Shown: positions 2,295-63,300 of the stretch, piece by piece
Layout: every line of letters starts with the position of its first letter
Numbering within the stretch: position 1 is the first letter of the stretch
Source: an uncultured Dokdonia sp.
GTDB lineage: Bacteria; Bacteroidota; Bacteroidia; Flavobacteriales; Flavobacteriaceae
Assembly: GCA_938002835.1 (NCBI GenBank)
Contig: CALKZS010000070.1
Span: 1,560 to 65,559 of the forward strand
DNA: 64,000 nucleotides
Direction: 5' to 3'
Program-made: the position numbers and the translations under genes
Notes under the pieces: model-generated
Told to the model about the DNA's origin: nothing
The model's database searches: none
Seen by the model: the letters and a program-made list of their open reading frames with translations, nothing else

Positions 2295-3778
2295 TAATTA
2301 ACCGTAAATGTGGTTCCTTCACGACCATCTTTAAGCTGGATCCCTAATTCAATAAGCTCATCACGTATTTTATCACTTAACGCAAAGTCTTTATTTTCTC
2401 TCGCTTCTTTGCGCAGTTTTATAAGTAACTCAACAGTTCCGTTAAGTTTTGAGTCGTCCGCTTTCGCGAAAGCGTCACCATTTTCGAGCCCTAAAACATC
2501 AAACACAAATGCATTCATTGTGTTAATGAGCAATTTTAGGTCGTTTTCTGTGAGCTCAACTTTTCCATCTTTTACAAGGTGTATCTGTTTTACACCGTCA
2601 AAAAGATGAGCAATGAGAATAGGTGTGTTAAAATCATCATTCATTGCATTGTAGCAAGACTGTTTCCAGGCAGCAACGTCAAATGTACTTTTATTAGATG
2701 TTTGTAAGCTTTTTGCAATTTTAAGAGCTTCCATTAGTCTGTTAAAGCCTTTTTCACTCGCTAGTAATGCATCGTTGCTAAAATCCATAATGCTACGATA
2801 ACTAGTTTGTAAGATGAAAAATCGTGCAACACTTGGAGCAAAACCTTTTGTTAAATGTTTACTTTCTCCAGTAAATATCTCACCGGGGTTAATGCTGTTT
2901 CCAGTGCTTTTTGCCATTTTTTGCCCATTAAGTGTGAGCATATTTGCGTGCATCCAGTATTTTACGGGTTCTTTGCCAAGTGCAGCCTCATTTTGGGCAA
3001 TCTCACACTCGTGATGCGGAAACTTAAGATCCATACCACCACCGTGTATATCAAATTGTTCTCCTAAATATTTTGTGCTCATTGCAGTACATTCAAGATG
3101 CCATCCGGGAAAACCATCTCCCCAAGGAGAAGGCCAGCGCATTATGTGTTGCGGTTCGGCTTTTTTCCATAAAGCAAAATCTTGCGGATTTTCTTTTTCG
3201 CTTTGTGAAGTGAGCGCGCGTGTATTTGCAATCATATCTTCTAGCTTTCTGCCAGAAAGTTTACCATACTCGTGATCTTTATTAAACTTTACTACATCAA
3301 AATATACAGAACCATTTTTTTCATAAGCATAGCCATTTACTATTATCTTTTTGATAAGTTCTATCTGCTCAATAATGTGACCTGTCGCTGTGGGCTCAAT
3401 ACTAGGTGGTAAGAAATTAAATTTATTTAAGATGTTATGAAAGTCTACAGTATACTGTTGTACTACTTCCATAGGTTCAATTTTTTCTAAACGAGCTTTT
3501 TTTGCAATCTTATCTTCACCTTCATCTGCATCGTCTGTAAGGTGACCAGCATCTGTAATATTACGAACGTATCTTACTTTGTATCCTAGATGTTTTAGGT
3601 ATCTAAAGATCATATCAAAACTCATAAATGTGCGCACATTACCTAGGTGCACATTACTATATACCGTAGGGCCGCATACATACATACCTACATATCCTTC
3701 TAAAAGGGATTCAAAAGGTTCTTTTTTTCCTGTAATAGAATTGTAAATCGTAAGTTGTTGCTCTGTATATAAAGGCAT
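2294..3778 (-). CDS. cysS: Cysteine--tRNA ligase
   Basis: [12 protein letters not shown] (HIGH-like), [14 protein letters not shown] (KMSKS-like). Confidence 0.98.
2459..2474. repeat. Palindrome copy 1, CGCTTTCGCGAAAGCG, inside cysS (AFAKA frame)
   Basis: Exact 16-mer read from sequence. Confidence 0.97.
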
Positions 3779-3837
3779 TTGTTGTATTATTTTTTATGAT
3801 ATAACGAAGTTATTAAATATCTTGATTGTAGAATCCA

Positions 3838-3873
3838 AAAAAGCGGTCACTTTTACAAGAAACCGCTTTTTTT
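3838..3873. terminator. Hairpin AAAAAGCGGT...ACCGCTTTTT with A/T tracts on both sides; probable intrinsic terminator between the folE unit and cysS
   Basis: 10-bp inverted repeat. Confidence 0.6.
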
Positions 3874-3884
3874 GAAATGTGTTA

Positions 3885-3900
3885 CGCTTTCGCGAAAGCG
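3885..3900. repeat. Palindrome copy 2, intergenic upstream of cysS
   Basis: Exact 16-mer. Confidence 0.97.
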
Positions 3901-3986
3901 AAAAACACTTTAATTACAGGGAAATGGACAAGAGTTTAATTCTTCTATTCGTTAACCTAGGTAGTCTCCACTCCATAAAAAGAGAA

Positions 3987-4307
3987 TTAGTCAGGAGACT
4001 TGATTTTTAATAAAATAGCAATATTGATAACAATTAACCCGAAGCCGACAGTGATGAAAGTTAATAGCGACCAAAGATATTTTCCTTTTAACTCATATTG
4101 ATTCACTAATCTAAAGGTCCAGAAAACAAGAAATGCTCTCAAGATAAGATGGAAAGCAAATATGTAAAATCGATTACTACCTCTAAGTCCAGATATCTGA
4201 TCGAACACATCACCTATACTTAGAGGAATGAATAATAAAATAGTAAATATAACTCCTACTATAAGTGGAATATACGTCGGTTTCTTTTTGCTTTCAGATA
4301 ACTCCAT
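3987..4307 (-). CDS. Hypothetical membrane protein (about 3 TM)
   Basis: 106-aa hydrophobic ORF, same strand as folE, fills the gap. Confidence 0.65.
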   Translation of the reverse strand: MELSESKKKPTYIPLIVGVIFTILLFIPLSIGDVFDQISGLRGSNRFYIFAFHLILRAFLVFWTFRLVNQYELKGKYLWSLLTFITVGFGLIVINIAILLKIKSPD

Positions 4308-10725: not shown

Positions 10726-10920
10726 TCACTCCTTTTTTTTTGTATTATAACGTTTAAAAATAAAAGACATTATAGTAGCAAATAAAATCCCTTGAATGAG
10801 AATCCCAATCCAGTCTATAGGGTCTTTACTATAGTAGTTAAATAAAAAAAGACCCAAAGAATGAAAGGTAAAAAACCAAATAAAAAAAATAAAAAATTTA
10901 TTGACTTTCATTTTTTTCAT
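10726..10920 (-). CDS. Small hypothetical 2-TM membrane protein (start uncertain: 10941, 10920 or 10911)
   Basis: Hydrophobic ORF overlapping the upstream stop, co-oriented with the operon. Confidence 0.5.
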   Translation of the reverse strand: MKKMKVNKFFIFFIWFFTFHSLGLFLFNYYSKDPIDWIGILIQGILFATIMSFIFKRYNTKKKE

Positions 10921-11254
10921 CCAGCGCCTCCCAATATTCATAAGCTTTTCTTAAGTGAGGAATTACAATAGTTCCTCCAATAAGTGTTCCTATACTTAAG
11001 GTTTCCATTACCTCTTCTTTAGTAACATTTTCATTATAACAGCTTTCTAAGTGATATTTTATGCAGTCATCACAGCGAAGCACTGTAGATGCAATAAGAC
11101 CTAAAAGTTCTTTAGTCTTTACATCAAGTGCTCCTTTTGAAAAAGCATTGGTATCTAGATTAAAAATGCGTTTGACAATTTTGTTATTATCTGCTAGTAT
11201 TTTGTCGTTCATTTTAGAACGATACTCGTTAAAATCATCTACAATATTGCTCAT
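10898..11254 (-). CDS. Carboxymuconolactone decarboxylase/AhpD-like protein
   Basis: KELLGLIAS...RCDDCIKYH with CxxC. Confidence 0.88.
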   Translation of the reverse strand: MSNIVDDFNEYRSKMNDKILADNNKIVKRIFNLDTNAFSKGALDVKTKELLGLIASTVLRCDDCIKYHLESCYNENVTKEEVMETLSIGTLIGGTIVIPHLRKAYEYWEALDEKNESQ

Positions 11255-11276: not shown

Positions 11277-11292
11277 CGCTTTCGCGAAAGCG
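11277..11292. repeat. Palindrome copy 3, between tatC and the CMD gene (extends to 18 bp)
   Basis: Exact 16-mer with A/T flanks. Confidence 0.97.
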
Positions 11293-11362: not shown

Positions 11363-12202
11363 TTACGCAAGTCCTTGCTTTTTTAGTCGACGTTTTTCTC
11401 TACGAATAACACCTTTTGAGATAAAAATACTCACCTCATATAATATGATGATAGGTACTGCAACAATAACTTGCGTTGTAATATCTGGAGGTGTAATAAT
11501 GGCGGCAAGAATAAGAACGATCACTAAGGCATACTTTCTGTTTGTGCGTAAAAATTCTGGAGTAATTAATCCTATTTTAGTCAGGAAATACATTATTATA
11601 GGGAGTTCAAAAATAAGTCCAGAGGCTAAGACAGATGCTCTTACTAAAGCTATATATGAATCTATATCAAACTCATTTTGAATAATGTCAGAAATTTTAA
11701 AAGTTGCTAGAAAGTTTATAGAGAGTGGTGCTACCACAAAATATCCAAAACCTGCTCCTAAAAAAAATAATATGGAAGCAATTACTATAAAACCTCGACT
11801 TGTTTTTCGTTCATTATCATAAAGTCCTGGAGAGATAAATTTCCAGAATTCATATAATATATAAGGAAATCCTAATACGACACCAGCCATTATAGAACTC
11901 CATATAGCAGCGCTAAACTGTCCAGCTACTTTTCTAGATTGTATGATAAAATCCATCTCACCATCTGTAATACACCCTTTTTCGGCCCCAAAGAACTGTG
12001 AGATTTTGCATAAAATGTCATAAGATATAAAGTCTGGACTTTTTGGACCAAAAATGATAGCAAATAAAGTTCCTTTAAATATAAATGCAATAATACCTAT
12101 TATTACAACAGCTAGTGTTGCTCTTATTAAATGCCATCTTAATTCTTCTAGGTGATCTAGAAAAGACATCTCATCTGGATGCTTCTTTACTTTTTTTGCC
12201 AT
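11363..12202 (-). CDS. tatC: Twin-arginine translocase subunit TatC
   Basis: MSFLDHLEELR, FISPGLY, FELP, AAIITPPD. Confidence 0.97.
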   Translation of the reverse strand: MAKKVKKHPDEMSFLDHLEELRWHLIRATLAVVIIGIIAFIFKGTLFAIIFGPKSPDFISYDILCKISQFFGAEKGCITDGEMDFIIQSRKVAGQFSAAIWSSIMAGVVLGFPYILYEFWKFISPGLYDNERKTSRGFIVIASILFFLGAGFGYFVVAPLSINFLATFKISDIIQNEFDIDSYIALVRASVLASGLIFELPIIMYFLTKIGLITPEFLRTNRKYALVIVLILAAIITPPDITTQVIVAVPIIILYEVSIFISKGVIRREKRRLKKQGLA

Positions 12203-13252: not shown

Positions 13253-15454
13253 ATGGGAATAAGCGAAATAGACTTACACGCAGAGCTTAAAAAGTATTTT
13301 GGTTTTAGCGAGTTTAGAGGATTACAGGAAGATGTAATAAAAAGTATTGTATGTAGAGAGCATACGTTTGTAATAATGCCAACAGGTGGTGGGAAGTCTT
13401 TATGCTACCAGTTACCTGCTCTTATAGCAGATGGGACAGCCATTGTGGTGTCTCCTCTTATTGCTTTAATGAAAAACCAGGTGGATACTTTAAGAGGTAT
13501 ATCGCAAGATAATGGTATTGCTCACGTACTTAACAGTTCTCTTACAAAAGGAGAGATAAGAACAGTAAAAGAAGACATTACTCGAGGTGTCACAAAACTC
13601 TTATATGTTGCTCCAGAATCTCTTACCAAAGAAGAAAATGTAGAGTTTTTAAGAGGAGTACCTATCTCTTTCTTAGCAATAGATGAGGCACATTGTATTT
13701 CAGAATGGGGTCACGACTTTAGACCAGAGTATCGCAATTTACGAAAAATTATTGGTCGTATAGGAGACGATATTCCTATTATAGCCGTGACAGCTACCGC
13801 AACTCCTAAGGTACAAGAAGATATTTTAAAGAACTTAGGGATAGCAGGAGCTGCAAATACATTTAAAGCGTCCTTTAATAGACCTAATTTGTACTATGAG
13901 GTGCGTCTAAAAACTACACAAGTAGATACAGATATCATTCGTTTTGTAAAACAAAATGAAGGTAAAAGTGGTATTATATATTGTCTTGCCCGTAAACGCG
14001 TAGAAGAACTTGCGCAAACATTACAGGTAAATGGGATAAATGCAGTGCCTTATCACGCAGGTTTAGATGCAAAGACAAGAGCAAAACATCAAGATATGTT
14101 CCTTATGGAAGATGTAGATGTTGTAGTGGCGACCATTGCTTTTGGAATGGGAATAGATAAACCAGATGTTCGTTTTGTGATACATAACGACATCCCAAAA
14201 AGTATTGAAAGTTATTATCAAGAGACAGGTCGTGCGGGTAGAGATGGAGGAGAAGGACATTGTCTTGCATTTTATGCATATAAAGACATCGAAAAGCTCG
14301 AGAAGTTTATGAGTGGTAAACCTGTTGCCGAGCAAGAAATAGGTCACGCATTATTGCAAGAAGTAGTTGCTTATGCAGAGACGAGTATGTCTAGACGTAA
14401 GTTTATATTGCATTATTTTGGAGAGTCATTTGATAATGAGACTGGAGAAGGAGGGATGTTAGATGATAATATGCGTTTTCCAAAGAAAAAACACGAAGCA
14501 AAAGATGAGCTTCTAAAGGTGTTAACCGTCATTAGTAAAACTAATGCTATTTATAAGAGCAAAGAAATCGTTCTTACATTAATAGGAAAAGAAAATGCTA
14601 TTATAAACTCTCATAAAACAGACGACCAAGCTTTTTTTGGAATAGGAAAGGAACAAAAAAAGGAATATTGGTTTGCCTTATTAAGACAATCTATTGTAGC
14701 GGGATATATCACAAAAGATATAGAGATGTATGGAGTTGTAAAAATGACTCAAAAAGGACACGATTTTATAGCAAATCCTGTGTCTTTTATGATGACAGAC
14801 GATCACGTTTTTGATAAAAATACAGATAATAGCATTGTCTCTGGTCAAAAAGCAGGTGCTGGAGCAGATAAAAAGCTAGTAAGCATTCTAAAAAGTTTAA
14901 GAAAAAAAGTAGCAAAAAAATTAGATGTTCCACCATTTGTGGTTTTTCAAGATCCTTCTATAGACGATATGGCTATCAAATATCCGTTAACACTTGCCGA
15001 ACTTGGTAATGTTCACGGGGTAGGTGATGGCAAAGCAAAAAAGTTTGGGAAAGATTTTGTGAAGTTAATTGCCGACTATGTAGAAGAAAATAATATTTTT
15101 CGCCCTGATGATATTGTTGTAAAAAGTACAGGAGCAAATAGTGCTCTTAAACTATATATCATTCAAAATATAGATCGCAAGTTGCCATTAAATGATATAG
15201 CAGATGCAAAAGGAAAAGAGATGCCAGATTTTATTAAAGAAATGGAGGCAATCGTTTTTAGTGGTACAAAACTCAATATTAATTATTGGATTGATGAGAT
15301 TCTTGACGAAGATCAACAAGAAGAATTGCACGAATATTTTATGGAGGCAGAGACAGATAAAGTAGAAGATGCTATGGAAGAGTTTGAAGGAGATTATGAA
15401 GATGAGGAAATTCGTCTTTATCGCATTAAATTTATGAGTGAGGTTGCCAATTAA
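13253..15454 (+). CDS. recQ: RecQ DNA helicase
   Basis: [31 protein letters not shown] and HRDC regions. Confidence 0.96.
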
Positions 15455-15469: not shown

Positions 15470-15485
15470 CGCTTTCGCGAAAGCG
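15470..15485. repeat. Palindrome copy 4, between the recQ stop and a TACATTTG promoter element
   Basis: Exact 16-mer. Confidence 0.97.
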
Positions 15486-18680: not shown

Positions 18681-19550
18681 ATGAGTAGTTTAAAATCCCA
18701 CGTTATTTACGATGCACGTAAAAGACGTGGGATTTTGTTTTTTGCATTGATTATTATTTTAGTGACCATCATCATCATATGGTATCATCCCAATAAGACT
18801 GTTGATATCTCTGAAATCGAACAGCTAAAAGTTGAAAACCTTCAAAGAGAAATTGATTCCCTTAAAAGTATAGCTATAGAGAACAGCAAACCTAAGATAT
18901 ATCCATTTAACCCTAATTTTATAACAGACTATCGTGGTTATACATTAGGTATGACTCCAGAAGAGATAGATAGATTGTTGCGCTTTCGCGAAAGCGGGAA
19001 ATGGATAAATTCTACACGAGATTTTAAAAATGTAACTCAAGTGTCCGATTCTTTGCTGGCTATTATTTCTCCTTATTTTAAATTTCCTCAATGGGTTACA
19101 AACACGAAGCCAACAACAAATACTACTACTAAGTGGAAAACGAAGGAACAAAAACAAGAGCTAAATAAACTGACCTATGAGTCTTTGTTGGAAATAGATG
19201 GAGTGAATGAACAGGATGCAACAAAGATAATAACACATCTCAATAAAGTTGGAGGTTATCAAGTAGACCAACAGCTATACGATGTATATGGGGTATCTTC
19301 TAAAGTAAAGCGATTAGTGCTTAATGATTATACAGTCAAAGAAAAACCAAAAATTGAATTAATTAATGTAAATACCGCAACTGCTTCAGATCTTTCTACT
19401 ATTCCTTTGCTTAACTTTGAACTAGCAAAAGAGATTGTAGATTATCGCATATTGAGAGAAGGAATAAAATCTCTTGAAGAGCTTCAAAAATTAGATGGGA
19501 TGACCGATTATAAATTTGAAAGAATAAAGCTATATTTACATATAAATTAA
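18681..19550 (+). CDS. ComEA-like helix-hairpin-helix DNA-binding protein
   Basis: One TM, FNPN motif, INVNTATASDLSTIP HhH repeat. Confidence 0.82.
   Translation: MSSLKSHVIYDARKRRGILFFALIIILVTIIIIWYHPNKTVDISEIEQLKVENLQREIDSLKSIAIENSKPKIYPFNPNFITDYRGYTLGMTPEEIDRLLRFRESGKWINSTRDFKNVTQVSDSLLAIISPYFKFPQWVTNTKPTTNTTTKWKTKEQKQELNKLTYESLLEIDGVNEQDATKIITHLNKVGGYQVDQQLYDVYGVSSKVKRLVLNDYTVKEKPKIELINVNTATASDLSTIPLLNFELAKEIVDYRILREGIKSLEELQKLDGMTDYKFERIKLYLHIN
18981..18996. repeat. Palindrome copy 5, inside the ComEA-like gene (RFRES frame)
   Basis: Exact 16-mer. Confidence 0.97.
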
Positions 19551-22917: not shown

Positions 22918-22990
22918 GCGGGAGTAGCTCAGTTGGTAGAGCGTCAGCCTTCCAAGCTGAATGTCGCCAGTTCGAACCTGGTCTCCCGCT
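22918..22990 (+). tRNA. tRNA-Gly(TCC)
   Basis: GCGGGAG/CTCCCGC acceptor, TCAGC-CTTCCAA-GCTGA. Confidence 0.97.
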
Positions 22991-23074: not shown

Positions 23075-23090
23075 CGCTTTCGCGAAAGCG
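23075..23090. repeat. Palindrome copy 6, in the tRNA-Gly/tRNA-Thr spacer
   Basis: Exact 16-mer ending 10 nt before tRNA-Thr. Confidence 0.97.
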
Positions 23091-23100: not shown

Positions 23101-23172
23101 GCCGACGTAGCTCAGGGGTAGAGCGTTTCCTTGGTAAGGAAGAGGCCACGGGTTCAAATCCCGTCGTTGGCT
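23101..23172 (+). tRNA. tRNA-Thr(GGT)
   Basis: GCCGACG/CGTTGGC acceptor, anticodon loop TTGGTAA. Confidence 0.97.
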
Positions 23173-27754: not shown

Positions 27755-27808
27755 AAAGGTTTAGGTTGATTGCGCTTTCGCGAAAGCGTAATTTGACCTA
27801 AACCATTT
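27755..27808 (+). terminator. Long hairpin after rplL whose apex is palindrome copy 7
   Basis: GGTTTAGGTT/GACCTAAACC arms continuing through GATTG/TAATT into the palindrome. Confidence 0.65.
27773..27788. repeat. Palindrome copy 7, rplL-rpoB spacer
   Basis: Exact 16-mer. Confidence 0.97.
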
Positions 27809-31787: not shown

Positions 31788-31801
31788 GCTTTCGCGAAAG
31801 C
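31788..31801. repeat. Palindrome copy 8 (14-bp core), rpoB-rpoC spacer, abutting a small hairpin at 31770-31787
   Basis: GCTTTCGCGAAAGC exact; flanks C/A. Confidence 0.97.
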
Positions 31802-36148: not shown

Positions 36149-36168
36149 TACGCTTTCGCGAAAGCGTA
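36149..36168. repeat. Palindrome copy 9 (20 bp, TACGCTTTCGCGAAAGCGTA), starting immediately after the rpoC stop
   Basis: Exact. Confidence 0.97.
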
Positions 36169-38285: not shown

Positions 38286-38305
38286 TACGCTTTCGCGAAA
38301 GCGTA
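38286..38305. repeat. Palindrome copy 10 (20 bp), beside the bidirectional terminator
   Basis: Exact. Confidence 0.97.
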
Positions 38306-41215: not shown

Positions 41216-41231
41216 CGCTTTCGCGAAAGCG
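41216..41231. repeat. Palindrome copy 11, in the predicted ndk 5' leader
   Basis: Exact 16-mer. Confidence 0.97.
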
Positions 41232-41317: not shown

Positions 41318-41734
41318 ATGACAAATAGAACTTTTACAATGATTAAGCCTGATGCTGTCGAGAATGGACACATTGGTGCGATTTTAGAAAAAATTACTGC
41401 AAGCGGTTTTCGTATTGTAGCAATGAAACTTACACAAATGACCAAGGCAGATGCCGAAGAATTTTATGGAGTGCACGCAGAGCGTCCTTTCTTTGGAGAG
41501 CTTGTAGAATTTATGACACGCGGACCTATAGTGGCAGCTGTACTTGAAAAAGAAAATGCAGTAGCAGATTTCCGTACATTAATAGGGGCAACAAACCCAG
41601 CAGATGCTGCAGAAGGTACAATACGTGCTTTATATGCAACTTCTGTAGGAGAAAATGCTGTGCACGGGTCTGATAGTGATGAAAATGCAGCGATAGAAAG
41701 TGCATTTCATTTTTCTGGACGTGAGATGTTTTAA
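41318..41734 (+). CDS. ndk: Nucleoside diphosphate kinase
   Basis: [22 protein letters not shown]. Confidence 0.98.
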
Positions 41735-43855: not shown

Positions 43856-43871
43856 TGCTTTCGCGAAAGCA
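43856..43871. repeat. Palindrome copy 12, TGCTTTCGCGAAAGCA (symmetric T/A flank variant)
   Basis: Exact core; both outer bases differ from CG but remain complementary. Confidence 0.97.
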
Positions 43872-47021: not shown

Positions 47022-47996
47022 TTTATCTATAAAGTTTATACATATCATCCTAATCATAAAAACGAGTGGAATGCTTTTGTAGCCATTTCTAAAAATGCCA
47101 CATTTTTGCATAACCGAGATTTTGTAGAGTATCACTCAGATAGATTTTTAGATCATTCATTAATAGTAAAAAAGGGAGAGCATATAGTTGCATTAGTACC
47201 AGCACATAAAGCAGGTGCTATAGTGCATAGCCATCAAGGGCTTACGTATGGTGGGATTTTGCTTTCGCGAAAGCAAAAAACGAAAGATACTCTCGAGATA
47301 GTAAAGGCAATACTTCTATTTCTAGAAAGTCAAGGTATCCTTAGACTTTCCATTAAGCCAGCACCACATTTTTATATGAAGCAACCTAGTGAGGAGATAG
47401 CTTATGTGTTACAATTATTAAATGCAAATTGTTACCGTATAGATACAGCCTCTGTAATAGATAATCGAGATAGATTACCCATACAGTCTAATAGAGTAGA
47501 AGGTGTGAGAAAAGCGCAGAAAAAGGGATTAATTATCAAGGAAGAAGCTGTTTTTAATGATTTCTGGCAACAAATTTTAGTGCCTAATCTCACAAAAAAA
47601 TATCAATCAAAACCTACACACACCCTTGAAGAAATAGTGTTGCTACAACACTGCTTTTCAAATAACATTAGACAGTTCAATGTATATGATGGGAAAGAAA
47701 TAGTAGGAGGAACTACTATTTTTGAAACTTCGACAGTAGCGCACGTTCAATATATCTCTGGTAATGATAATAAACAAGAGTTAGGAACATTAGATTTTCT
47801 TTTTCATTATCTCATTACAGATATATTTGCTCATAAAAGGTATTTTGACTTTGGGATTTCAAATGAAAATCAAGGAAAAAACCTAAATAGCGGATTGTCA
47901 TATTGGAAAGAATGTTTTGGTGCGCGCACGTTTGTACACAGACATTATGAAGTAGAAACTAAGAATCATTCACTTTTAAATGATGTGTTAATATGA
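47022..47996 (+). CDS. GNAT/FemAB-like acyltransferase; family-like N-terminus extends to 47022 but the first canonical start is TTG 47106
   Basis: W..FV..SKNATFLHNRDF.EYHSDRF, HQGLTYGG, FDFGISNE, WKECFGAR. Confidence 0.8.
   Translation, partial: FIYKVYTYHPNHKNEWNAFVAISKNATFLHNRDFVEYHSDRFLDHSLIVKKGEHIVALVPAHKAGAIVHSHQGLTYGGILLSRKQKTKDTLEIVKAILLFLESQGILRLSIKPAPHFYMKQPSEEIAYVLQLLNANCYRIDTASVIDNRDRLPIQSNRVEGVRKAQKKGLIIKEEAVFNDFWQQILVPNLTKKYQSKPTHTLEEIVLLQHCFSNNIRQFNVYDGKEIVGGTTIFETSTVAHVQYISGNDNKQELGTLDFLFHYLITDIFAHKRYFDFGISNENQGKNLNSGLSYWKECFGARTFVHRHYEVETKNHSLLNDVLI
47257..47278. repeat. Palindrome copy 13 (22 bp, TTTT-core-AAAA), inside the GNAT gene (LSRK frame)
   Basis: Exact core 47261-47274. 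Confidence 0.97.
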
Positions 47997-49099
47997 TTCC
48001 TTTTTTAAATCTTAAGAATCTTAATGCTCCTTATGAGAAAGAACTCAAACAACAGTTTGACCGTTTTTTAAATACCGGATGGTATATTTTAGGAGAAGAA
48101 GTTACCTTTTTTGAAAAAGAATATGCTACCTATTGTGGGACATCGCATTGTGTAGGAACAGCAAATGGGCTGGACGCCATTCGTATTATTTTAGAAGGGT
48201 ATAAGATTTTAAAAAAACTTCATCTAGGAGATGAGGTTCTTGTAGCGAGTAATACCTATATAGCAACGATTATAGCAATTAAGCAAGCAGGATTAATTCC
48301 TGTTTTAGTAGAAGCAGATCTAGATACTTTTAATTTTGATTTTAAGGATCTAGAAAGTAAGATTACTTCTAAAACTAAAGTTGTATTACCTACACATCTT
48401 TATGGTCAGCTTACAGATATGGAGAAGATATTTGCTTTTGCAAAAGCACATCATTTATTAATTGTTGCAGATTGTGCTCAATCTCACGGGGCGCAAACTA
48501 ATGATGGTAATAAAAGTGGTTCTCTTGCAAATGCAGCTGCGCATAGCTTTTATCCTACAAAGAATCTAGGAGCTCTTGGTGACGCTGGGGCGATCACTAC
48601 AGATGATAATGAGCTGGCTGATGTAATTAAAAAATATAGAAATTACGGTTTTGAAAAAGCATATATTGCAAAGTATATAGGTGTTAATTCTCGTCTCGAT
48701 GAGTTACAAGCTGCTTTTTTGAGAATTAAATTAAGAGATTTAGACCATCAAAACAATAAACGCATTGCCATTGCAAAGCGTTATCTCTCAGAGATTAAAA
48801 ATGAATATATCATAATGCCTCAATGGAATGGCCAGAAAGATCACGTTTTTCATTTGTTTGTGATTCGTTCTAAGTATCGCAATGAACTACAAGAGTATTT
48901 GAAGAATAATGGGATACATACCATTATTCATTACCCAATACCACCACATAAACAAGAAGCGTTACAGGAGTTTAAAGAACTTTATTTTCCTACTAGTGAG
49001 CAGTTACATAATGAGGTACTAAGTATTTCTACAGATCCTACATTAACGCCAGTTGAGGTAGATAAAATCATCAGTGTTATAAACAATTTTGTATGCTAG
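47993..49099 (+). CDS. DegT/DnrJ/EryC1/StrS PLP-dependent sugar aminotransferase (FdtB/QdtB-like)
   Basis: NGLDA, DCAQSHG, SFYPTKNLG, NSRLDELQAA. Confidence 0.93.
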   Translation: MIPFLNLKNLNAPYEKELKQQFDRFLNTGWYILGEEVTFFEKEYATYCGTSHCVGTANGLDAIRIILEGYKILKKLHLGDEVLVASNTYIATIIAIKQAGLIPVLVEADLDTFNFDFKDLESKITSKTKVVLPTHLYGQLTDMEKIFAFAKAHHLLIVADCAQSHGAQTNDGNKSGSLANAAAHSFYPTKNLGALGDAGAITTDDNELADVIKKYRNYGFEKAYIAKYIGVNSRLDELQAAFLRIKLRDLDHQNNKRIAIAKRYLSEIKNEYIIMPQWNGQKDHVFHLFVIRSKYRNELQEYLKNNGIHTIIHYPIPPHKQEALQEFKELYFPTSEQLHNEVLSISTDPTLTPVEVDKIISVINNFVC

Positions 49100-50394
49100 G
49101 GAAGTTGTATGGTAAGATTACAAACAACCTACTTTTAAAGATTACTTCTTTAAATGCCATAGCAGTATTATTCCAAATAATAGGAGGTTTTATCACTTCA
49201 AAACTCATTGCAATTTATTTAGGTGAACGAGGAATGGCATTGTTAGGATATTTGCGCAATTTTTTGACCACCACACAGGCTATAGCAAACCTAGGTTATA
49301 GTAATGGCGTTGTAAAATATGTAGCTTCTCATAAAGATAATAAACCGTTATTATCAAAGATGTTGTCATCTTCTATTATTATGAGTTTTGTTGCCTCCAT
49401 AATAATTTCTGTGATATTGTATGTAGGAGCTCCGTTCTGGAATAATGCCGTTTTTGGAAGAGACATATCTTATGTCTATATATTTAAATATCTTGCTTTT
49501 GCTATTCCTTTTATCACAGCAAATAGTATTCTGATTGCAATTATAAATGGACAATCTGCCTATAAAAAAGTGGTATGGATTAATATAGTGACTAATGCAA
49601 TGGGTATTGGGATTACCGCCTATTTGATCATCACAAAAGGAATAGAAGGAGCATTTATTGCAATGGTGATAAGTCCAGCTATTGCAGTATTAGTCACATT
49701 AATTTTAATAGGAAAACAAGCTAGACTTCTAAGATTATTAGTTGCCAAAGTATCATTTACGGCCATAAAGAAAATGAGTTCATACACCATTATGGCTGTT
49801 TTTTCTATGATGGTTTTACCTTTGGTTTATATTGCGATACGTAATCAAATTGTAACTTCAAGCGGAATTGAAGCAGCGGGTTATTGGGACGCGATGACAC
49901 GTATTTCTGATTATTACATCAAGTTTGTAGCTACAGTGATGACTTTGTATATATTACCACAGCTTGCAAAAACAACAACTGATGTTGCATTTAGAAAAGA
50001 GATTTTTGCGTTTTATAAAACAATATTGCCTTTGTATGGTGTAGGTTTGCTAATAATATTTTTATCTAGAAAGTTTATTATCCAGATACTGTTTACAGAA
50101 GATTTTATACCTGTATCATCGCTTTTTAAATGGCAATTATTAGGAGATTTTTTTAAGGTAGCCTCTCTGGTGATAGGATATCAAATTATTGCTAAAAATA
50201 ATTTAAAACTCTTTCTATTCACTGAGATTATCTCTCTTATAGTAATATATATATCAGGAATTTATTTTGTAAAATTGTATGGGTATGAAGGTGGTGCCAT
50301 AGGACATTGTTTAAGTTATTTTGTGCATTTATTAATGTTACTGTTTATCTTTAGAAAACCACTTTTTGGAAAAATAAAAGAAGCCAGTGCGTAG
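49093..50394 (+). CDS. wzx: O-antigen/oligosaccharide flippase (WzxE-like)
   Basis: About 12 TM, G..GMA..G..RNF, AGYWDAM.RISD, WQLLGDFFK. Confidence 0.88.
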   Translation: MLGKLYGKITNNLLLKITSLNAIAVLFQIIGGFITSKLIAIYLGERGMALLGYLRNFLTTTQAIANLGYSNGVVKYVASHKDNKPLLSKMLSSSIIMSFVASIIISVILYVGAPFWNNAVFGRDISYVYIFKYLAFAIPFITANSILIAIINGQSAYKKVVWINIVTNAMGIGITAYLIITKGIEGAFIAMVISPAIAVLVTLILIGKQARLLRLLVAKVSFTAIKKMSSYTIMAVFSMMVLPLVYIAIRNQIVTSSGIEAAGYWDAMTRISDYYIKFVATVMTLYILPQLAKTTTDVAFRKEIFAFYKTILPLYGVGLLIIFLSRKFIIQILFTEDFIPVSSLFKWQLLGDFFKVASLVIGYQIIAKNNLKLFLFTEIISLIVIYISGIYFVKLYGYEGGAIGHCLSYFVHLLMLLFIFRKPLFGKIKEASA

Positions 50395-50917
50395 ATTAGG
50401 ATCTTTCATACAGTTTTTTCGTATTCTTAAATACAAGTTACTTTCAACAAATAAACACATTGAAGGTAAAGCAATAGTACATCAACCTGCTCAGGTAAAT
50501 GGAGAAGGGGTAATACGCTTTCGCGAAAGCGTACACATAGGGGTCACAAATTCACCCCAGTTTTATAATACATATGCATATATAGAGGCTCGAAAGAAAG
50601 GGAGTGAGATTGTTTTTGGAGAGAATGTAGCAATCAATAATAACTTTTGTGCAATTGCAAATGAATCGTCTATTACTATTGGAGATCATACCACGATAGG
50701 ATATAACGTATCAATTTATAACTGTAACTTTCATAGTCTTGACCCTGAAAAACGAAGAGAAGAAACTGGTAGTAGTAAACCTGTATATATCGGGAAGAAT
50801 GTTTTTATAGGAAATAACGTAAGCATTTGGAAAGGTGTCACCATAGGAGACAATGCTATTATACCCGCAGGAAGTATTGTAAAAGTTGATGGCTTAGAAG
50901 GAAGTACTTTTTCTTAA
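50387..50917 (+). CDS. Left-handed beta-helix O-acyltransferase (GTG start)
   Basis: Hexapeptide repeats, PVYIGKNVFIG, KGVTIGDNAII. Confidence 0.87.
   Translation: MRRLGSFIQFFRILKYKLLSTNKHIEGKAIVHQPAQVNGEGVIRFRESVHIGVTNSPQFYNTYAYIEARKKGSEIVFGENVAINNNFCAIANESSITIGDHTTIGYNVSIYNCNFHSLDPEKRREETGSSKPVYIGKNVFIGNNVSIWKGVTIGDNAIIPAGSIVKVDGLEGSTFS
50514..50533. repeat. Palindrome copy 14 (20 bp), inside the acyltransferase gene (RFRES frame)
   Basis: Exact. Confidence 0.97.
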
Positions 50918-53104: not shown

Positions 53105-54187
53105 TTGTCTAAAGATACTCATAAAAAAATTGCATTAATTACGATTTCACTCGCTGGAGGAGGTGCAGAGAAATCTACAGCATTGCTTTCTAAAATGTTA
53201 GATCACAAAGGGTTTGAAGTACATATAATTGTACTAAACGACGCTATAGATTTTTCATATGCTGGGAAGTTGTATAATATGGGGATTTTTAAAAAAAAAG
53301 GAGATTCTATTTTAAAAAAAGTCAAACGCTTTACAGCGCTTAGAAAATACATTAAGAAAGAAGATTTTGACTTTATCATTGATAATAGGAGTAGAGATAA
53401 TACTATTAAAGAGCGCTTTTATCTGTATTACATTTATAAAAATCAACAGGTCATATATGTATCACGTAGTTTTAAGTTAGATAATTATTTTACTAATGAT
53501 AGTAAAATAGGTCAACAGATGATTCAGAAATCTTCTGGAGTTATTGGAGTATCTCAAGCAATAAGTAAAGAGATAAACCAGAAGTATAATACACAAAAGG
53601 CTGTTACAATATATAACCCGGTAGAATTTATCGATGTTTCGTCAGTTATGGAAATAGATGTCCCTTACTTCATTTTTGTGGGTAGACTTTTAGACAAGGT
53701 AAAAAATGTGAGTTTGTTGATTAACGCTTTCGCGAAAGCTAAAAAAGAAAACCACCATCTTAAGATATATGGTGATGGGATTGATAAAGAACGCCTTATG
53801 ATACTTTCTAAAACCTTAGGGATGGATAATAAAATATTATTCTATCCATTTAAAGAAGATATTTATCAAGATATTGCAGCTGCAAAGGCTTTACTTTTAA
53901 CCAGTCATTATGAAGGATTTCCTAGAGTGCTCATAGAGGCATTGTCTATGGGAACTCCTGTGATAAGTGTAGATTGCCAAAGCGGGCCCAATGAAGTTAT
54001 AACTCATAAAGAAAATGGGTTGCTAGTAAAAAACTATGATCAAGTTGTATTTACAGAAGCTATAGAATCTTTTATATTTGACACCGATTTGTATACTACT
54101 TGTAAACAGAATGCAGTAAAGAGTGTAAGTCACTTGAAAACAGATATTATTGCATCACAATGGAGCGATTATTTAAATAAAATATAA
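53105..54187 (+). CDS. GT4 glycosyltransferase (TTG start)
   Basis: GGGAEK, FVGRL, EGFPRVLIEA, HKENGLLV. Confidence 0.92.
   Translation: MSKDTHKKIALITISLAGGGAEKSTALLSKMLDHKGFEVHIIVLNDAIDFSYAGKLYNMGIFKKKGDSILKKVKRFTALRKYIKKEDFDFIIDNRSRDNTIKERFYLYYIYKNQQVIYVSRSFKLDNYFTNDSKIGQQMIQKSSGVIGVSQAISKEINQKYNTQKAVTIYNPVEFIDVSSVMEIDVPYFIFVGRLLDKVKNVSLLINAFAKAKKENHHLKIYGDGIDKERLMILSKTLGMDNKILFYPFKEDIYQDIAAAKALLLTSHYEGFPRVLIEALSMGTPVISVDCQSGPNEVITHKENGLLVKNYDQVVFTEAIESFIFDTDLYTTCKQNAVKSVSHLKTDIIASQWSDYLNKI
53726..53739. repeat. Palindrome copy 15 (14-bp core), inside the GT4 gene (AFAKA frame)
   Basis: Exact core; flanks C/T. Confidence 0.97.
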
Positions 54188-59326: not shown

Positions 59327-60010
59327 TTATACAGTTTTTTGAACTACTTCAAAAATCTTATTCCCATCACATTTTAAAGTTTTTGAAGGATATTTAAGTA
59401 ATAAAGCATAATCGTGAGTGGCCATTAAAATGGTGTTGCCATTTTTATTAATTTCTTGTAATACCTCCATTACCTCTACACTTGTTTGTGGGTCTAAGTT
59501 ACCTGTAGGCTCATCGGCTAGAATAAGTTCTGGATCATTGAGCAAAGCACGAGCAATAGCAACTCGCTGTTGCTCACCCCCAGAAAGTTGATATGGAAAT
59601 TTAAAACCCTTACTCTTCATTCCTACTTTATCAAGTACAGCTTCTATTTTACTATCTATAGCTGGTTTTTCTTTCCAGCCAGTAGCCTTTAAAACAAAAC
59701 GTAAGTTATCATTTACAGTACGATCATTTAGTAATTTAAAATCTTGAAAAACAACCCCTAGTTTTCTGCGCAAAAAAGGAATATTCTTTTCTTTAAGACC
59801 TTCTAGATCAAACCCTACAATGGTTCCTTTACCTTCATTAAGAGGTAAATCACCATAAAGTGTTTTCATAAAACTACTTTTTCCAGAGCCTGTTTTTCCT
59901 ATAAGATATACAAAGTCTCCCGGCTCAATAGTCACATTGACCTCAGAAAGAACGAGATTTTCACGTTGATAAATTGCTGCGTGAGAAAGTTGTAATACAG
60001 GTGTAGACAT
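59327..60010 (-). CDS. ftsE: FtsE-like ABC ATP-binding protein
   Basis: [39 protein letters not shown]. Confidence 0.85.
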
Positions 60011-60230
60011 CTATTAAATTTTATAAATATCAAAGTAACGGAATTTTATGCAGTAGCACAATGGCATCTAGTGGCTTTAAAAATAAGTATGCTATAACAT
60101 TGACTTTCATATGCAAACTTTTTTTGTATGATAATAAATTAGAACAAAATTTGATTTAAGCGACCAGATAAACGCACGGTTGTTAAAATCCTTTTCACAA
60201 CTTCATATAATTATACAGTAAACAAGACGT

Positions 60231-60238
60231 TATCTTTG
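60231..60238 (+). promoter_or_regulatory. Sigma-A -7 element TATCTTTG upstream of the TPR gene
   Basis: TAnnTTTG in the divergent intergenic region. Confidence 0.55.
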
Positions 60239-60281
60239 TGAAAGAAAACTAACTTTGATAGTATTTTAAAAATGATTTTAA

Positions 60282-60301
60282 TACGCTTTCGCGAAAGCGT
60301 A
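60282..60301. repeat. Palindrome copy 16 (20 bp), in the predicted TPR-gene leader
   Basis: Exact. Confidence 0.97.
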
Positions 60302-60325
60302 ACCTCAATCTAATAACCTCTCATT

Positions 60326-63300
60326 ATGCATAGAATCAAGTATCTACTTGTAGCATTTATTTTATACACAACAGCTTCTGTAGCACAACAAACAGCTATA
60401 TATACAAATGACCTTGCTGCATTTAATAAAGCATTGTCATTATATAATAGCAATCAATATCTGGCATCTCAAACACTTTTTGAAGAAGTAAAAGCAGCCT
60501 CAACAGATGAAACTGTAAAGGGTGATTGTGCATATTATATAGCAAATGCAGCAGTACGACTTAACCAGCAAGGTGCAGATAATCTAATGTTAGAATTTGT
60601 AACAGATTATCCTACTAGTACCAAACGTAATAGCGCATTTTTAGATGTAGCGTCTTATTATTTTGAAAATGGAAAATATTCATATGCCAGAAAATGGTAT
60701 GATCGTGTAGAAGAAAAAAACCTTTCTGGATCAGAGCGCGAAACCTATGATTTTAATAATGGATATGCATACTTTAAAAATGATCGTTTTGAAGAAGCAA
60801 AAAAATACCTCAATCGTGTAAGAGATTCAAAAAAATATGGATCACAAGCAAAGTACTACATAGGCTTTATGGCATATGAAGGTGATGATTATGATCAAGC
60901 AAATGAGTTGTTTAATGAAGTAGAGGCCGAAACTGGAGGAGAGTACAATGAAGATTTAGCCTATTTTAAAGCAGATCTTAATTTTAAGTTAGGAAAATTT
61001 GACGAAGCAATTGCAGAAGGAAAATCACAACTCCCAAGAGCCACCGCTGCCGAAAAATCTGAACTAAACAAGATTATAGGAGAAAGCTACTTTAATCAAG
61101 AAAAATATGCAGAGGCATTGCCCTATTTAAAGGAATATAAAGGTAAACGCGGTAAGTGGAATAATACAGACTATTATCAACTAGGATATACATATTATAA
61201 ACAAGGAGATTATCAAAATGCAATTAACGAGTTTAATAAAATAGTAGATGGTCGTAATAGCACTGCTCAAAACGCATATTATCACCTAGCAGAATCGTAC
61301 CTAAAATTAGATAAAAAGCAAGAAGCACTAAATGCATTTAAAAATGCTTCAGAGATGGAGTTTGATGCAAAAATTAAAGAAGATAGTGGTCTTAATTATG
61401 CAAAACTAAGTTATGAGATGGGAAATGCATATAAACCTACACCTACAGTTATTTCAGATTATTTAAAGGAGTATCCTAAAACGCAAGCAAAAGAAGAGCT
61501 TCAAACATTATTAATAGACTCATATATTACTTCAAAAAACTATAAAGAAGCAATGCGTTTATTAGAAAGTAATAGTAATGCAGATAATAAAGCGGCATAT
61601 CAAAAAGTGGCTTTTTTATATGGATTAGAACTCTATAATGAAGGTAATTACCCAGATGCAGATAAAGCATTTAAAAAATCTTTAAAAGAACCTCGTGATC
61701 CATTATATGTTACAAGAGCTACATATTGGGTAGCAGAAGGAGATTATATAGCAAATGATTTTAAAGAAGCAATCATAGGCTATAAAGACTTTATGAATAC
61801 TAGCAATGCTACAAGTACACCAGAATATATAGATGTACAATACAATCTTGCCTATGCTTATTTTTCAGACAAGCAGTATGATCAAGCAGCCATTCATTTT
61901 GAAAATTATACTAATGCTACAGATAATGATATCACAAGAAAAAATGATGCCTATTTGCGTTTAGGCGATAGCCGTTTTATATCAAGTAAATATTGGCCAG
62001 CGCTAGAAGCATATAATAGTTCTATTGCTTTAAATCAAACAGGACAAGATTATGCTACTTTTCAAAAATCAATGAGTTATGGTTTTATTAAAAAGAATGC
62101 AGAAAAGATAGATGGTCTAAAAAGTTTTTCAAGCAAATTTCCAACCTCTACATATCGTGATGACGCATTATATGAGTTAGGAAATATCTATGTAACACAA
62201 AATAAAAATGACCAAGCAATTGCAGCATACGATCAGTTGGTTCGTGATATACCTAAAAGTTCTTATGTCTCAAAAGCATTACTCAAAAAAGCATTAATTT
62301 ATGATAATAGTAACAGATCTGAAGAGGCACTTACGATCTTAAAAAAGGTGGCTCGTGATTATCCAGGAACACCAGAATCTTTACAGGCAGTGACTACAGC
62401 AAAGTTAATTTATGTAGACTTGGGTCGTGTTAATGAGTATGGGCAATGGGTAAGTACATTAGATTTTATTAGTGTAGAAGATGGAGAGCTAGATGACGCA
62501 GCATATGCGCAAGCAGAGAAGCAATATGTCGATAATAACACAGGTCAGGCAGAAAAACTTTTAAAGAGTTATTTAGAAGAATATCCTAATGGGCAGCATA
62601 CCTTAAATGCGCATTTTTATGTGGGGCAACTCGCTTTCGCGAAAGCTGACTACACAGCAACAATACCTCATTATAAGTATGTGATTTCTAAAGAGCGCAA
62701 TGAGTTTACAGAGCAAGCACTTGCAAGATTAGGTCAAGTATACCTTACCGAAAAAGATTATACAGCAGCTACACCTATTTTAAAACGATTAGAAACTGAA
62801 GCAGATTTTCCTCAGAATGTCATTTTTGCACAGTCTAACTTGATGAAATCATATTATGAGCAAGATAATTATAGTCAATCTATCACTTATGCAGAAAAAG
62901 TGCTGGATAATGTAAAGATTGATAATGCAGTAAAAAGTGATGCGCAAATAATTATAGCAAGGTCTTCTATAAAGACCAATAATGAGTCACGTGCAAAAAC
63001 AGCCTATGCAGAAGTGCAAAAAATAGCGACAGGAGCGCTAGCAGCAGAGGCTTTATATTATGATGCATATTTCAAAAATAAAGATAATGCTTATGAAGCT
63101 TCAAATGTGACTGTACAAAAACTAGCAAGTGAGTATAGTGGTTATAAAGAGTATGGAGCAAAAGGGCTGGTACTTATGGCAAAGAATTTTTATGCTTTAG
63201 GAGATGCATATCAAGCAACGTATATACTAGAAAGTGTGATAACAAACTTTACAGATTTTCCAGACGTGGTAAAAGACGCAGAAGCGCAACTTGAAATTAT

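Follow-up and report, generated by a model that had tools for sequence, protein, structure and literature searches.

What does a perfect palindrome do that recurs 17 times, letter for letter, in 64 kb of DNA from an uncultured Dokdonia sp.? An exact search of the window, by which the whole analysed stretch of 64,000 nucleotides is meant, recovered 17 copies of the 14-base core GCTTTCGCGAAAGC, each at the start position given in the preliminary description of this DNA. The core had 0 copies across 100 dinucleotide-preserving shuffles of the window. Reading of the flanks also bore out that 12 copies extend to the full CGCTTTCGCGAAAGCG and that two (43857 and 47261) have symmetric T/A outer bases; the outer bases of three copies (31788, 53726 and 62633) are asymmetric. 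The GC content, estimated by eye at about 33%, is 0.29-0.38 in the window and 0.334 in the genome. When up to two mismatches were allowed, the sole extra match in the window was the symmetric two-mismatch variant GCTTTTGCAAAAGC at 48434..48447, in a DegT-family aminotransferase gene, and no one-mismatch copy was found there. The claimed absence of single-mismatch or decaying copies thus holds within the window but not genome-wide: the 3.1 Mb genome (33.4% GC, 93% complete) contains 612 exact copies, 99 with one mismatch and 108 with two.

The copies of the window lie in genes as well as in spacers. The core at 2460..2473 is located in cysS (ORF 2294-3778, minus strand), where it encodes AFAKA in frame 0 just past the DALR domain. 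AFAKA is also encoded, again in frame 0, by the cores at 53726..53739 in a group-1 glycosyltransferase gene (53105-54187, plus strand) and at 62633..62646 in a TPR-repeat gene (60326-63346, plus strand). Frame 1, encoding RFRES, is used at 18982..18995 in a helix-hairpin-helix (ComEA-like) gene (18681-19550, plus strand) and at 50517..50530 in a hexapeptide-transferase gene (50387-50917, plus strand), and frame 2, encoding LSRK, at 47261..47274 in the ORF 47106-47996 (plus strand). The core at 3886..3899 lies between two minus-strand genes and adjoins a terminator-like hairpin, and that at 11278..11291 lies between the minus-strand ORFs 10898-11254 and 11363-12202. The core at 15471..15484 begins 17 nt past the stop of ORF 13253-15454 (plus strand), that at 23076..23089 separates the tRNA genes 22918-22990 and 23101-23172, and that at 43857..43870 follows ORF 41979-43775 (plus strand) and its terminator-like hairpin. 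Three cores accompany the RNA polymerase genes: 27774..27787 (40 nt past rplL, 27360-27734, and upstream of rpoB), 31788..31801 (rpoB-rpoC spacer) and 36152..36165 (4 nt past the rpoC stop codon). The spacer is convergent at 38289..38302 (36731-38227, plus strand, and 38313-39488, minus strand), and divergent at 41217..41230 (40055-41089, minus strand, and 41318-41734, plus strand) and at 60285..60298 (59327-60010, minus strand, and the TPR-repeat gene).

Across the genome one copy is found per about 4.6-5 kb, through genes and spacers, and the 45% of copies within genes occupy every reading frame. The spacing is even, with a CV of 0.55 vs 0.99 for a null that keeps the coding and intergenic classes and with 9 gaps below 1 kb against 65 expected; the evenness was replicated in two further genomes. 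Intergenic copies lie at a median of 42 nt from the upstream stop vs 95 nt from the next start, and many adjoin terminator hairpins just past stop codons; divergent and convergent spacers contain copies equally often. The variant GCTTTTGCAAAAGC has 28 copies in the genome, 20 of which stand in coding frame 0 as an A+T-rich synonymous form of AFAKA.

The motif is confined almost entirely to one clade. Every one of the 24 genomes sampled from the genus has hundreds of copies, but only 1 of 150 other genera does; the few copies seen in other genera cluster in a shared transferred operon, and no analogous word (a "dialect") was detected in eight other genera sampled. Isolate and complete genomes, namely those of Dokdonia sp. 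R86516, D. pacifica DSM 25597 and Nonlabens ulvanivorans PLR, carry the motif, which therefore is no assembly artefact. In 28 of 30 species of the genus the ortholog of the copy in the rpoB-rpoC spacer (31788) has kept every letter, while the surrounding spacer has diverged. This conservation, together with the even spacing and the restriction to a single clade, upholds the earlier claim of a lineage-wide, actively maintained word, for which no published description was found in the literature. The core GCTTTCGCGAAAGC belongs to a selected signal that Dokdonia, Nonlabens and their close kin, a single flavobacterial clade, keep letter-perfect, and it behaves like a selected "self-DNA" signal. 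At coding copies, comparison with an outgroup gave 31 of 41 ortholog pairs that are colinear, with no indels and unrelated residues under the motif; the cysS ortholog, for example, is colinear and has GGTQD where the core at 2460 encodes AFAKA. The motif thus evidently arises by base substitution, overwriting residues without indels.

At six of the seven base pairs of the core (all except pair 6:9) 61 single variants were counted but no double variant that keeps the palindrome. The innermost TT/AA and the central GC hardly vary, and the commonest single variants, C6>T and G9>A, are CpG transitions in CGCG, at its first C. Because no double variants at these pairs keep the palindrome, the core is read as sequence and not just for its base-pairing ability. 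The preliminary description had proposed the target of a dimeric DNA-binding, recombination or methylation factor. This is supported in part: the core is read as sequence, and the dyad symmetry fits a dimeric reader; on the side of the genes, no C5 methyltransferase domain was found in the genome (93% complete), a single ParB_N protein is present with no second ParB, and no link to a pilus emerged.

Nothing is conserved past about 20 bp in sequence, but the composition of the DNA around the core is. The unit measures about 52 bp and is dyad-symmetric: a C-free, G/T-rich stretch of 16 nt that has a 3-nt period, then TAC, the core, GTA and a G-free stretch of 16 nt. On each strand the C-free, G/T-rich block thus lies 5' of the core, with a GC skew of +0.5 to +0.76 over positions -19 to -4 and a sharp edge at -20. 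The unit is larger than the palindrome first described, by an extra 16-nt block per side. Both sides of each site are skewed, with no negative correlation between them. The polarity is independent of gene direction, occurs at all three codon positions with altered amino-acid usage, and weakens as the core degenerates. The block is missing at orthologous outgroup positions and is evidently a derived feature. At intergenic copies A peaks at -2, -5, -8, -11 and -14 and T at -4, -7, -10 and -13, a triplet phase that was seen again in 224 distinct copies taken from other species; G/T words, GGG, GTG, GGT and TGT among them, show a 2-3.5 fold enrichment. Pairing between the flanks is absent even when G:T is allowed, and a longer hairpin was rejected. 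Such strand-polarised 16-nt blocks point to a step that may involve single-stranded DNA rather than to a simple mark on the duplex.

We tentatively propose, on sequence patterns and analogy, that the motif is a bidirectional recombination or end-processing signal of the Chi type, a reading that we place first while regarding it as far from assured. The signal would act upon DNA unwinding or resection. The 3' half of the core on either strand is GCGAAAGC, a mini-hairpin word; DNA of this sequence forms an extraordinarily stable, exonuclease-resistant mini-hairpin that excludes SSB (PMC13037366). Directly 5' of it lies the C-free, triplet-phased, G/T-rich block of 16 nt, which would serve as a pad. 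In a Chi-type geometry degradation of the 3'-ended strand would cease on reaching the signal, and just upstream would lie a tract that favours RecA and sets the phase. After RecBCD action Chi stands at the 3' end of the tail; RecA, which binds triplets, self-aligns to Chi and a G/T pattern of 3-nt period (PMC5587095). The palindromic build would let the signal work for breaks on either side, and the even spacing would mean that no break is more than a few kb from a stop and loading point, and would tell the chromosome apart from lytic-phage DNA. The 14-20 bp core might be read by a helicase-nuclease or by a clade-specific dimeric protein.

Known Chi sites are asymmetric words of 5-8 nt, read single-stranded on one strand and oriented with replication, whereas here the full palindrome is required and orthologous sites are far better conserved than is known for Chi. 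The likeness to the Chi sites of RecBCD and AddAB lies in the few-kb spacing, the G/T-rich strand running 5' to 3' into the signal and the adjacent triplet phase (PMC5587095). It extends to phage: the lytic Nonlabens phages P12024S and P12024L, close relatives that amount to roughly one independent case, have no copy within two mismatches in about 35 kb each, which fits a plausible role in self/non-self discrimination. Against the Chi-type reading, prophage-like IMG/VR contigs carry the motif at host density. The mini-hairpin d(GCGAAAGC) at the primase/ssi sites of ssDNA phages such as G4 (PMC13037366) has the same letters as the 3' half of either strand of the motif; here, in contrast, the chromosomal palindrome, in 612 copies, is made of two such words that overlap head-to-head, and its hairpin is putative. 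Nearest-neighbour folding of the 14-mer gives only -2.1 kcal/mol, and a review states that models of this type miss the mini-hairpin (PMC13037366). Outside the exact motif GCGAAAGC occurs 186 times, almost always after near-matches to the left half GCTTTC. Since the half-site never stands alone, the full palindrome, as duplex with a dimer, would be no less natural a substrate. The triplet pattern, A-T-K and not the TGG of E. coli RecA, also tells against a Chi-type signal, as does the sharp 16-nt block, which could be the footprint of a duplex-binding complex. Mirrored flanks would follow automatically from a requirement on one strand and are no proof of two-fold action.

A footprint of this kind is what a second explanation assumes, namely that the motif is the duplex site of a clade-specific homodimer that organises or marks the chromosome, as do Noc/NBS, ParB/parS, MatP/matS, SlmA/SBS and RacA/ram, with the 16-nt blocks as the outer footprint of its complex. 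We consider this possible, if doubtful. A perfect palindrome of 14-20 bp matches NBS, parS and ram in size, and parS, NBS, ram, matS and SBS are G+C-containing palindromes of 14-16 bp that are read by dimers and may sit in genes, as the within-gene copies do here. Conservation of sequence rather than pairing, half-sites that never stand alone, the flank edge at -19/-20, the uniform coverage that even spacing would give and the restriction to one clade with no dialect in eight other genera all agree with it; in one lineage (G014) 70 exact copies stand against 196 degenerate ones, as if the reader had been weakened or lost. Known sites, however, number in the tens and are regional and degenerate, against 612 near-perfect and evenly spread copies, and the genome has a single ParB_N protein, with no paralogue, and yielded no candidate reader. 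G:C orientation over 16 bp with a period of 3 bp, not 10-11 bp, would be unusual for duplex contacts. We know of no strand-polar flanks described for parS, NBS, ram, matS or SBS.

An element acting in RNA seems unlikely. A transcript in either direction would carry a C-free tract, a hairpin and a G-free, C/A-rich tract, and could serve processing, stabilisation or Rho loading, which might, for instance, keep antisense or read-through transcription in check. One requirement on RNA would give the mirrored picture in DNA through the self-complementary pattern, the 3' flank resembles rut sites in being rich in C and poor in G, and intergenic copies lie nearer the upstream stop than the next start. 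As RNA, GCGAAAGC would presumably also be a mini-hairpin with a GNRA loop. The stem, however, shows zero covariation, which RNA hairpins normally show, and the flanks stay unpaired. Neither a convergent-over-divergent bias nor a T-tract nor an Rfam family was found, and nearly half of the copies lie in genes in all frames.

It is improbable that the motif is a self-tag for uptake, or for a step after uptake, in natural transformation that has spread by uptake bias. The DUS of Neisseriaceae and the USS of Pasteurellaceae share with it an exact word specific to a genus or family, even spacing, substitution into genes, orthologous persistence and traceability in transferred DNA, as in the operon shared with other genera, and a type IV pilus/secretin-like cluster is encoded in the genome, as is a ComEA-like gene. 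This motif, in contrast, is palindromic and longer than the known uptake words, which are asymmetric 9-12-mers, and uptake would leave the strand-polar flanks unexplained. The suggested correlation with gene families also failed here, as the pilus/competence-like cluster does not track the motif within the genus. Of the 34 genomes examined in the genus only 13 have its ATPase, and six essentially complete genomes with 757-899 copies of the motif lack it. Conversely, 34 other genera without the motif have the ATPase, and the pilus-bearing genera sampled showed no word of their own.

Even less credit is due to a by-product without function of its own, accumulated through methyltransferase or mismatch-repair bias in the manner of HIP1 (GCGATCGC). 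The cyanobacterial HIP1 is likewise a perfect, over-represented, lineage-specific palindrome of unknown function that arises by substitution in genes and spacers; CpG transitions are the commonest variants of the present motif, and 88% of the TCGCGA sites of the genome fall inside it. HIP1, however, has 8 bp and occurs about once per 1 kb, against 14-20 bp and an evenly spaced copy per about 5 kb in this member of the Bacteroidota, where no C5 methylase was found. We know of no repair or methylation enzyme with a specificity of 14-20 bp. Local mutation bias would give neither the even spacing nor the derived 16-nt flanks, of which no counterpart was seen at 121 HIP1 sites of Synechocystis plasmids, and the word is missing from lytic phages that infect the host genus.

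A mobile or copy-paste element (REP/RAYT, MITE or a Rickettsia-type palindromic element) or an intrinsic terminator is scarcely credible and is largely refuted: although 612 copies are similar in number to the REPs of E. coli and many intergenic copies lie just past stops beside terminator hairpins, the copies are single, unclustered, evenly spaced and anciently orthologous, with 31 of 41 orthologous coding sites free of indels, nothing conserved past about 20 bp, no T-tract and divergent spacers as frequent as convergent ones. The Y1 transposase matches belong to an unrelated multi-copy IS200 with different end hairpins.

All 17 exact copies of the 14-bp palindrome GCTTTCGCGAAAGC that the preliminary description had reported for the window were recovered at the same coordinates. 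Its reading of the outer bases also held, 12 copies being the full 16-mer and two carrying symmetric T/A outer bases, and it was right to discount a chance origin, as no copy appeared in 100 dinucleotide-preserving shuffles. With up to two mismatches allowed, only one further copy was found in the window, GCTTTTGCAAAAGC at position 48434. Among named loci, Dokdonia matches the host assembly best, at 81–85% identity. This assembly (3.098 Mb in 196 contigs, GC content 33.4%, completeness 93%) contains 612 exact, 99 one-mismatch and 108 two-mismatch copies, where about zero are expected. The consensus around the core of these copies reaches TAC-core-GTA. The motif accounts for 88% of the TCGCGA sites of the genome, and the single variants seen most often in it are transitions affecting the first C of CGCG. 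It is also found in isolate and complete genomes, which rules out the assembly artefact that had been considered for the window copies. No paper with the 14-mer was found in the searchable literature, and a literature search combining Dokdonia or Nonlabens with 'palindrom' returned nothing relevant. It is very probable that the motif is a selected, sequence-read genomic signal and neither a by-product nor a mobile element.

The motif is confined almost entirely to one clade. All 24 sampled members of the motif-bearing genus of the host carry exact copies (70–906 per genome), and no copy was detected in 16 genomes from other families of the same order. A survey of 150 other genera of the family, limited to genomes with a completeness of 90% or more, gave 722 copies in one genus and 0–16 in each of the others. 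The named matches belong to Dokdonia, Nonlabens, unclassified Flavobacteriaceae MAGs and one Muricauda. In 100-kb samples from each of eight other genera, a comparable dispersed word was not found, the only repeats there being a CRISPR-like array, one tandem repeat and a long element present in several copies; in the positive control, 100 kb of the host genome, the top 12-mer had 46 copies. This shows that, at least in the sampled genera, the motif is an innovation of one clade, and the possibility that it represents one of several family-wide dialects was rejected. The small motif clusters fetched from other genera, in six loci (L150–L155) of the genera G161, G133 and G143, mostly belong to a single operon that these genera share and whose ORFs encode 1250, 405, 188 and 809 aa. 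The sequence around the operon-borne copies is identical between two genera, which implies transferred DNA. Judging from this identity, the operon is likely to be an element that other genera received from the Dokdonia/Nonlabens clade, and the motif could serve as a tracer or natural tag for horizontal transfer out of the clade.

On rough ORF calls (ATG start, at least 90 aa; 84.6% coding), 335 of the 612 copies are intergenic and 277 lie in genes, the density in spacers being 6.6-fold higher. All three reading frames are used (144, 58 and 75 copies), and frame 0 of the motif encodes AFAKA. The genes hosting copies within the window are cysS, those of a helix-hairpin-helix protein, a hexapeptide transferase, a glycosyltransferase and a TPR protein, and one ORF without a family match. 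The helix-hairpin-helix (HHH_3) gene, at 18681–19550 of the window, is ComEA-like and bears its copy in frame 1, read as RFRES. The motif load of the spacer classes is approximately proportional to class length, and the divergent class is used no less than the others. In tandem spacers the median distance from the upstream stop to the motif is 42 nt, versus 95 nt to the next start. The spacing of the copies is markedly even. The 289 gaps on contigs of at least 20 kb have a mean of 4,589 bp, a median of 4,193 bp and a coefficient of variation (CV) of 0.55, while a null that keeps the coding and intergenic copy numbers per contig gives a CV of 0.99, with a minimum of 0.83 in 500 runs. Nine gaps are shorter than 1 kb and eight exceed 10 kb, against 65 and 31 expected under this null. 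The listed positions in two other genomes give CVs of 0.49–0.69 (P ≤0.002). The biggest motif-free stretches are not obviously foreign by GC content or gene sizes.

The origin of the in-gene copies was assessed with 41 motif-bearing host genes for which an outgroup homologue spans the site, the outgroup samples comprising 100 kb per genus. The alignment is colinear in 31 pairs, and the motif-encoded residues replace unrelated ones, as in CysS, where the host has GD[AFAKA]DD and the outgroup QQ[GGTQD]NS. The colinear pairs indicate that the motif was written by substitution into tolerant segments. In the other ten pairs it lies within gapped variable stretches. Once present, the motif persists. 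Of 30 species, 28 have an exact copy in the rpoB–rpoC spacer, while identity in the adjoining coding DNA falls as low as 77% and the remainder of the spacer has diverged. The exceptions are a species with a one-base variant and the genus member G014, in which approximately 20 nt are inserted at the dyad. G014 has 70 exact versus 196 one- or two-mismatch copies (12 for a reversed-pattern control), and thus looks like a lineage in which maintenance of the motif is weak or lost. Small hairpin-containing insertions lie exactly at the rpoB–rpoC motif in two fetched loci, L149 of G014 and L132 of the genome G001; the former, of about 20 nt, is at the centre of the dyad, and the latter, of about 24 nt, is at the core's 3′ edge. 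It is possible that small insertions or breaks occur preferentially at the motif. In the same spacer (window 31740–31850; L120–L149), most species have a copy of the right half of the motif (GAAAGCG/GAAAGTG) upstream of it, which could pair with the left half. This copy covaries between clades (GGAAAGCGGA...TCCGCTTTC versus GCGAAAGCGTA...TACGCTTTC), and together with the motif it may form an alternative hairpin or attenuator particular to this spacer.

The variants of the core show how it is read. Positions 3–4, their partners 11–12 and the central GC hardly vary. No palindrome-keeping double variant was found at the six pairs other than 6:9, despite 61 single variants. Only one double variant is symmetric, GCTTTTGCAAAAGC; of its 28 copies, 20 are coding in frame 0, where it is an A+T-rich synonymous spelling of AFAKA; compensatory evolution was therefore rejected. 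The half-site GCGAAAGC occurs 186 times outside the exact motif, almost always preceded by a near-match to the left half, and a stand-alone 8-mer acting as a single-stranded, Chi-like word was rejected on these grounds. The lack of double variants and of lone half-sites indicates that the full sequence is read, and this in turn points to a sequence-specific reader and not to a generic hairpin.

The core is embedded in polarised flanks. On each strand, a 16-nt block at −19 to −4 nearly lacks C (0.02–0.10 versus about 0.15) and is enriched in G and T, with a GC skew of +0.5 to +0.76 except at one position. Its boundary is sharp at −20, with a weak shoulder to about −29. In intergenic copies the block has a 3-nt period, A peaking at −2, −5, −8, −11 and −14 and T at −4, −7, −10 and −13; the A peaks recur where the motif is read in frame 1 or 2 of a gene, and both the edge and the period were replicated in 224 distinct copies from other species. 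If one strand has a C-free 5′ flank and a G-free 3′ flank, the other necessarily shows the same pattern, so the mirror image alone is no proof of two-fold action. The bias is present at all codon positions. At third positions upstream, C falls to 0.034 from 0.104 and G rises to 0.214 from 0.113; downstream, the use of Gly, Val and Met drops to 0.27–0.43 of baseline and that of Pro, Gln and His rises to 1.6–1.7. The outgroup lacks the block at orthologous positions (C 0.148, G 0.178, versus 0.071 and 0.263 at the motif), and the block is, as judged by this comparison, a derived feature. It is tied to the core: the skew fades from +0.60 through +0.49 and +0.37 to +0.13 as core mismatches increase from zero to three. 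The two flanks of a site are nearly uncorrelated (Spearman rho +0.05; both at 1 or fewer in 227 sites versus 219 expected). Since both sides of each site are skewed, a lagging-strand-only or replichore-dependent cause is excluded, and a transcription-driven skew was rejected, the skew being the same whichever way the gene runs. Pairing between the flanks does not exceed the compositional or shuffled expectation, with Watson-Crick pairs only or with G:T allowed, and a longer hairpin or G:U-extended stem was rejected on these grounds.

The octamer GCGAAAGC forms an extraordinarily stable DNA mini-hairpin that resists exonuclease, excludes SSB and is found at the G4 primase site (PMC13037366). 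It makes up the motif's 3′ half on both strands, and the stability of the mini-hairpin is not captured by nearest-neighbour folding. The tail left by RecBCD carries Chi at its 3′ end, and RecA binds DNA in triplets, with a phase aligned to Chi and to a G/T pattern with a 3-nt period (PMC5587095). Unlike Chi, a short asymmetric word that is recognised on a 3′-ended single strand, attenuates RecBCD/AddAB and favours RecA loading on its 5′ side, the motif is a full palindrome whose half-site never occurs without its partner; the G/T-rich, triplet-phased block 5′ of the core is nevertheless a Chi-compatible geometry. Resection 5′ to 3′ from either side would leave as the surviving strand the G/T-rich, triplet-phased strand ending in the core, and the even spacing would put a copy near any break. 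From the mini-hairpin, the Chi and RecA facts and this geometry we tentatively propose, as a working model with somewhat less than an even chance of being correct, that the motif is a bidirectional recombination or end-processing signal. A fuller formulation is possible but rather unlikely: a new chromosomal self-signal, namely a palindromic, structure-forming, bidirectional recombination and end-protection element consisting of the core and triplet-phased loading pads, with a putative clade-specific reader. If true, it would be the first system of the Chi type to combine a symmetric sequence, even spacing imposed by selection and the strength to override protein sequence.

The main rival explanation, which we regard as doubtful, is that the motif is a duplex site bound by a dimeric, clade-specific protein that organises the chromosome and whose footprint would be the 16-nt blocks. 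That the full palindrome is required speaks for such a site, whereas the 3-bp period and the strand polarity favour a single-stranded DNA step. In size and symmetry the motif would suit a 14–16 bp palindrome that is read as duplex, as parS and NBS are; its half-site register differs from theirs. A Noc-like ParB paralogue as the reader was rejected, the host genome containing a single ParB_N match. By-eye inspection of the proteins encoded between closely spaced motif pairs, as candidates for an autoregulated reader, revealed nothing that stood out; one protein near such pairs looks like an AsnC/Lrp regulator. Regular-expression screens of the proteome gave no match for LAGLIDADG and four for GIY-YIG, three of which look by eye like UvrC or exonuclease fusions.

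Uptake, HIP1-like, mobile-element and RNA-level readings are less likely. Like the DUS/USS uptake sequences, which favour the uptake of DNA that carries them, the motif is evenly spaced, occurs within genes and persists at orthologous sites; unlike them, it is not tied to the type IV pilus transformation machinery. Contig C59 of the host assembly carries at about 1.5–12.8 kb a cluster encoding pseudopilins, PilC/GspF-like, prepilin-peptidase-like and PilM/O-like proteins, a PilB/GspE ATPase and a secretin, which by its gene content is type IV pilus/type II secretion-like. The T2SSE/PilB ATPase is present in 13 of 34 genomes of the genus and in 36 of 151 genera of the family, including 34 without the motif, and is missing from six complete genomes with 757–899 copies. 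Pilus-dependent uptake was rejected, as such a cluster tracks the motif neither in the genus nor in the family. The HIP1 octamer GCGATCGC or a close variant, as Elhai is said to have described in 2015, reportedly occurs about once per kb in cyanobacteria and is linked to cognate DNA methyltransferases. Both words are short, perfect, hyper-abundant palindromes arising by substitution in coding and non-coding DNA, but the motif differs in word, length, phylum and density (about 1 per 5 kb). No flank block comparable to that of the motif was seen at 121 HIP1 sites on Synechocystis plasmids. A C5-methylase/Vsr drive was rejected, since no C5 methyltransferase (PF00145) was found in the 93% complete host genome. 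To our knowledge, HIP1 is still unexplained after 30 years.

REP elements are extragenic, imperfect and often clustered palindromes, and RAYT (Y1 transposase) genes are REP-flanked. In contrast, 45% of the motif copies lie in genes, and the copies are single and evenly spaced. The Y1 transposase matches of the host are a multi-copy IS200 at contig ends with hairpins unlike the motif, and a REP/RAYT origin was thus rejected. This IS200-family element, with GGACTTTAAGTCC / GTGACTTTAAGTCAC end hairpins, is located at the ends of contigs C34, C67, C57, C174 and C115 and breaks the assembly. Insertion of a MITE or Rickettsia-type element was dismissed, as the 31 colinear coding sites have no indel and nothing is conserved beyond about 20 bp. 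At the RNA level, no Rfam family covers any copy. Intrinsic terminators consist of a hairpin followed by a T-tract, are concentrated at the 3′ ends of genes and in convergent spacers, and seldom occur in divergent ones; the A/C-rich 3′ flank without a T-tract and the equal use of divergent spacers rule them out.

The lytic Nonlabens phages P12024S and P12024L (about 35 kb each) have no copy with up to two mismatches, where the host density predicts about seven; as close relatives they represent roughly one independent case. Some IMG/VR contigs bear the motif at host-like density, and two of these, with isolate-genome-like identifiers, may be prophages.

Iterated words such as Chi, DUS/USS, HIP1 and KOPS are among the few places where the DNA-handling machinery writes its preferences chromosome-wide, and the motif is longer and cleaner than these. 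Its anatomy is unusually informative: the flank is sharp-edged, strand-polar and triplet-phased, and it prevails over the choice of codons and amino acids. The clade is culturable, as the isolates of Dokdonia and Nonlabens show, and the reader and the process should be directly findable by pull-down, ChIP and END-seq. Should the motif prove to be a signal for recombination or for telling self from non-self, Chi-type logic would reach into Bacteroidota, and in a structural form that is new.

A second palindrome attracted attention by its scarcity. CATG is nearly lacking in the host genome, with 62 copies over 3.1 Mb and not one in the 64-kb window, compared with about 2 per kb in relatives and outgroups, and the few copies are confined to a handful of contigs (C4, C87, C99 and C140). 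The rpoB–rpoC loci of four genomes (G191, G007, G001 and G008) are CATG-free, and those of other genus members have 8–10 copies per 4 kb. From these counts the deficit looks like a lineage-specific, near-total avoidance of the 4-bp palindrome, for which a CATG-specific restriction system is presumably responsible.
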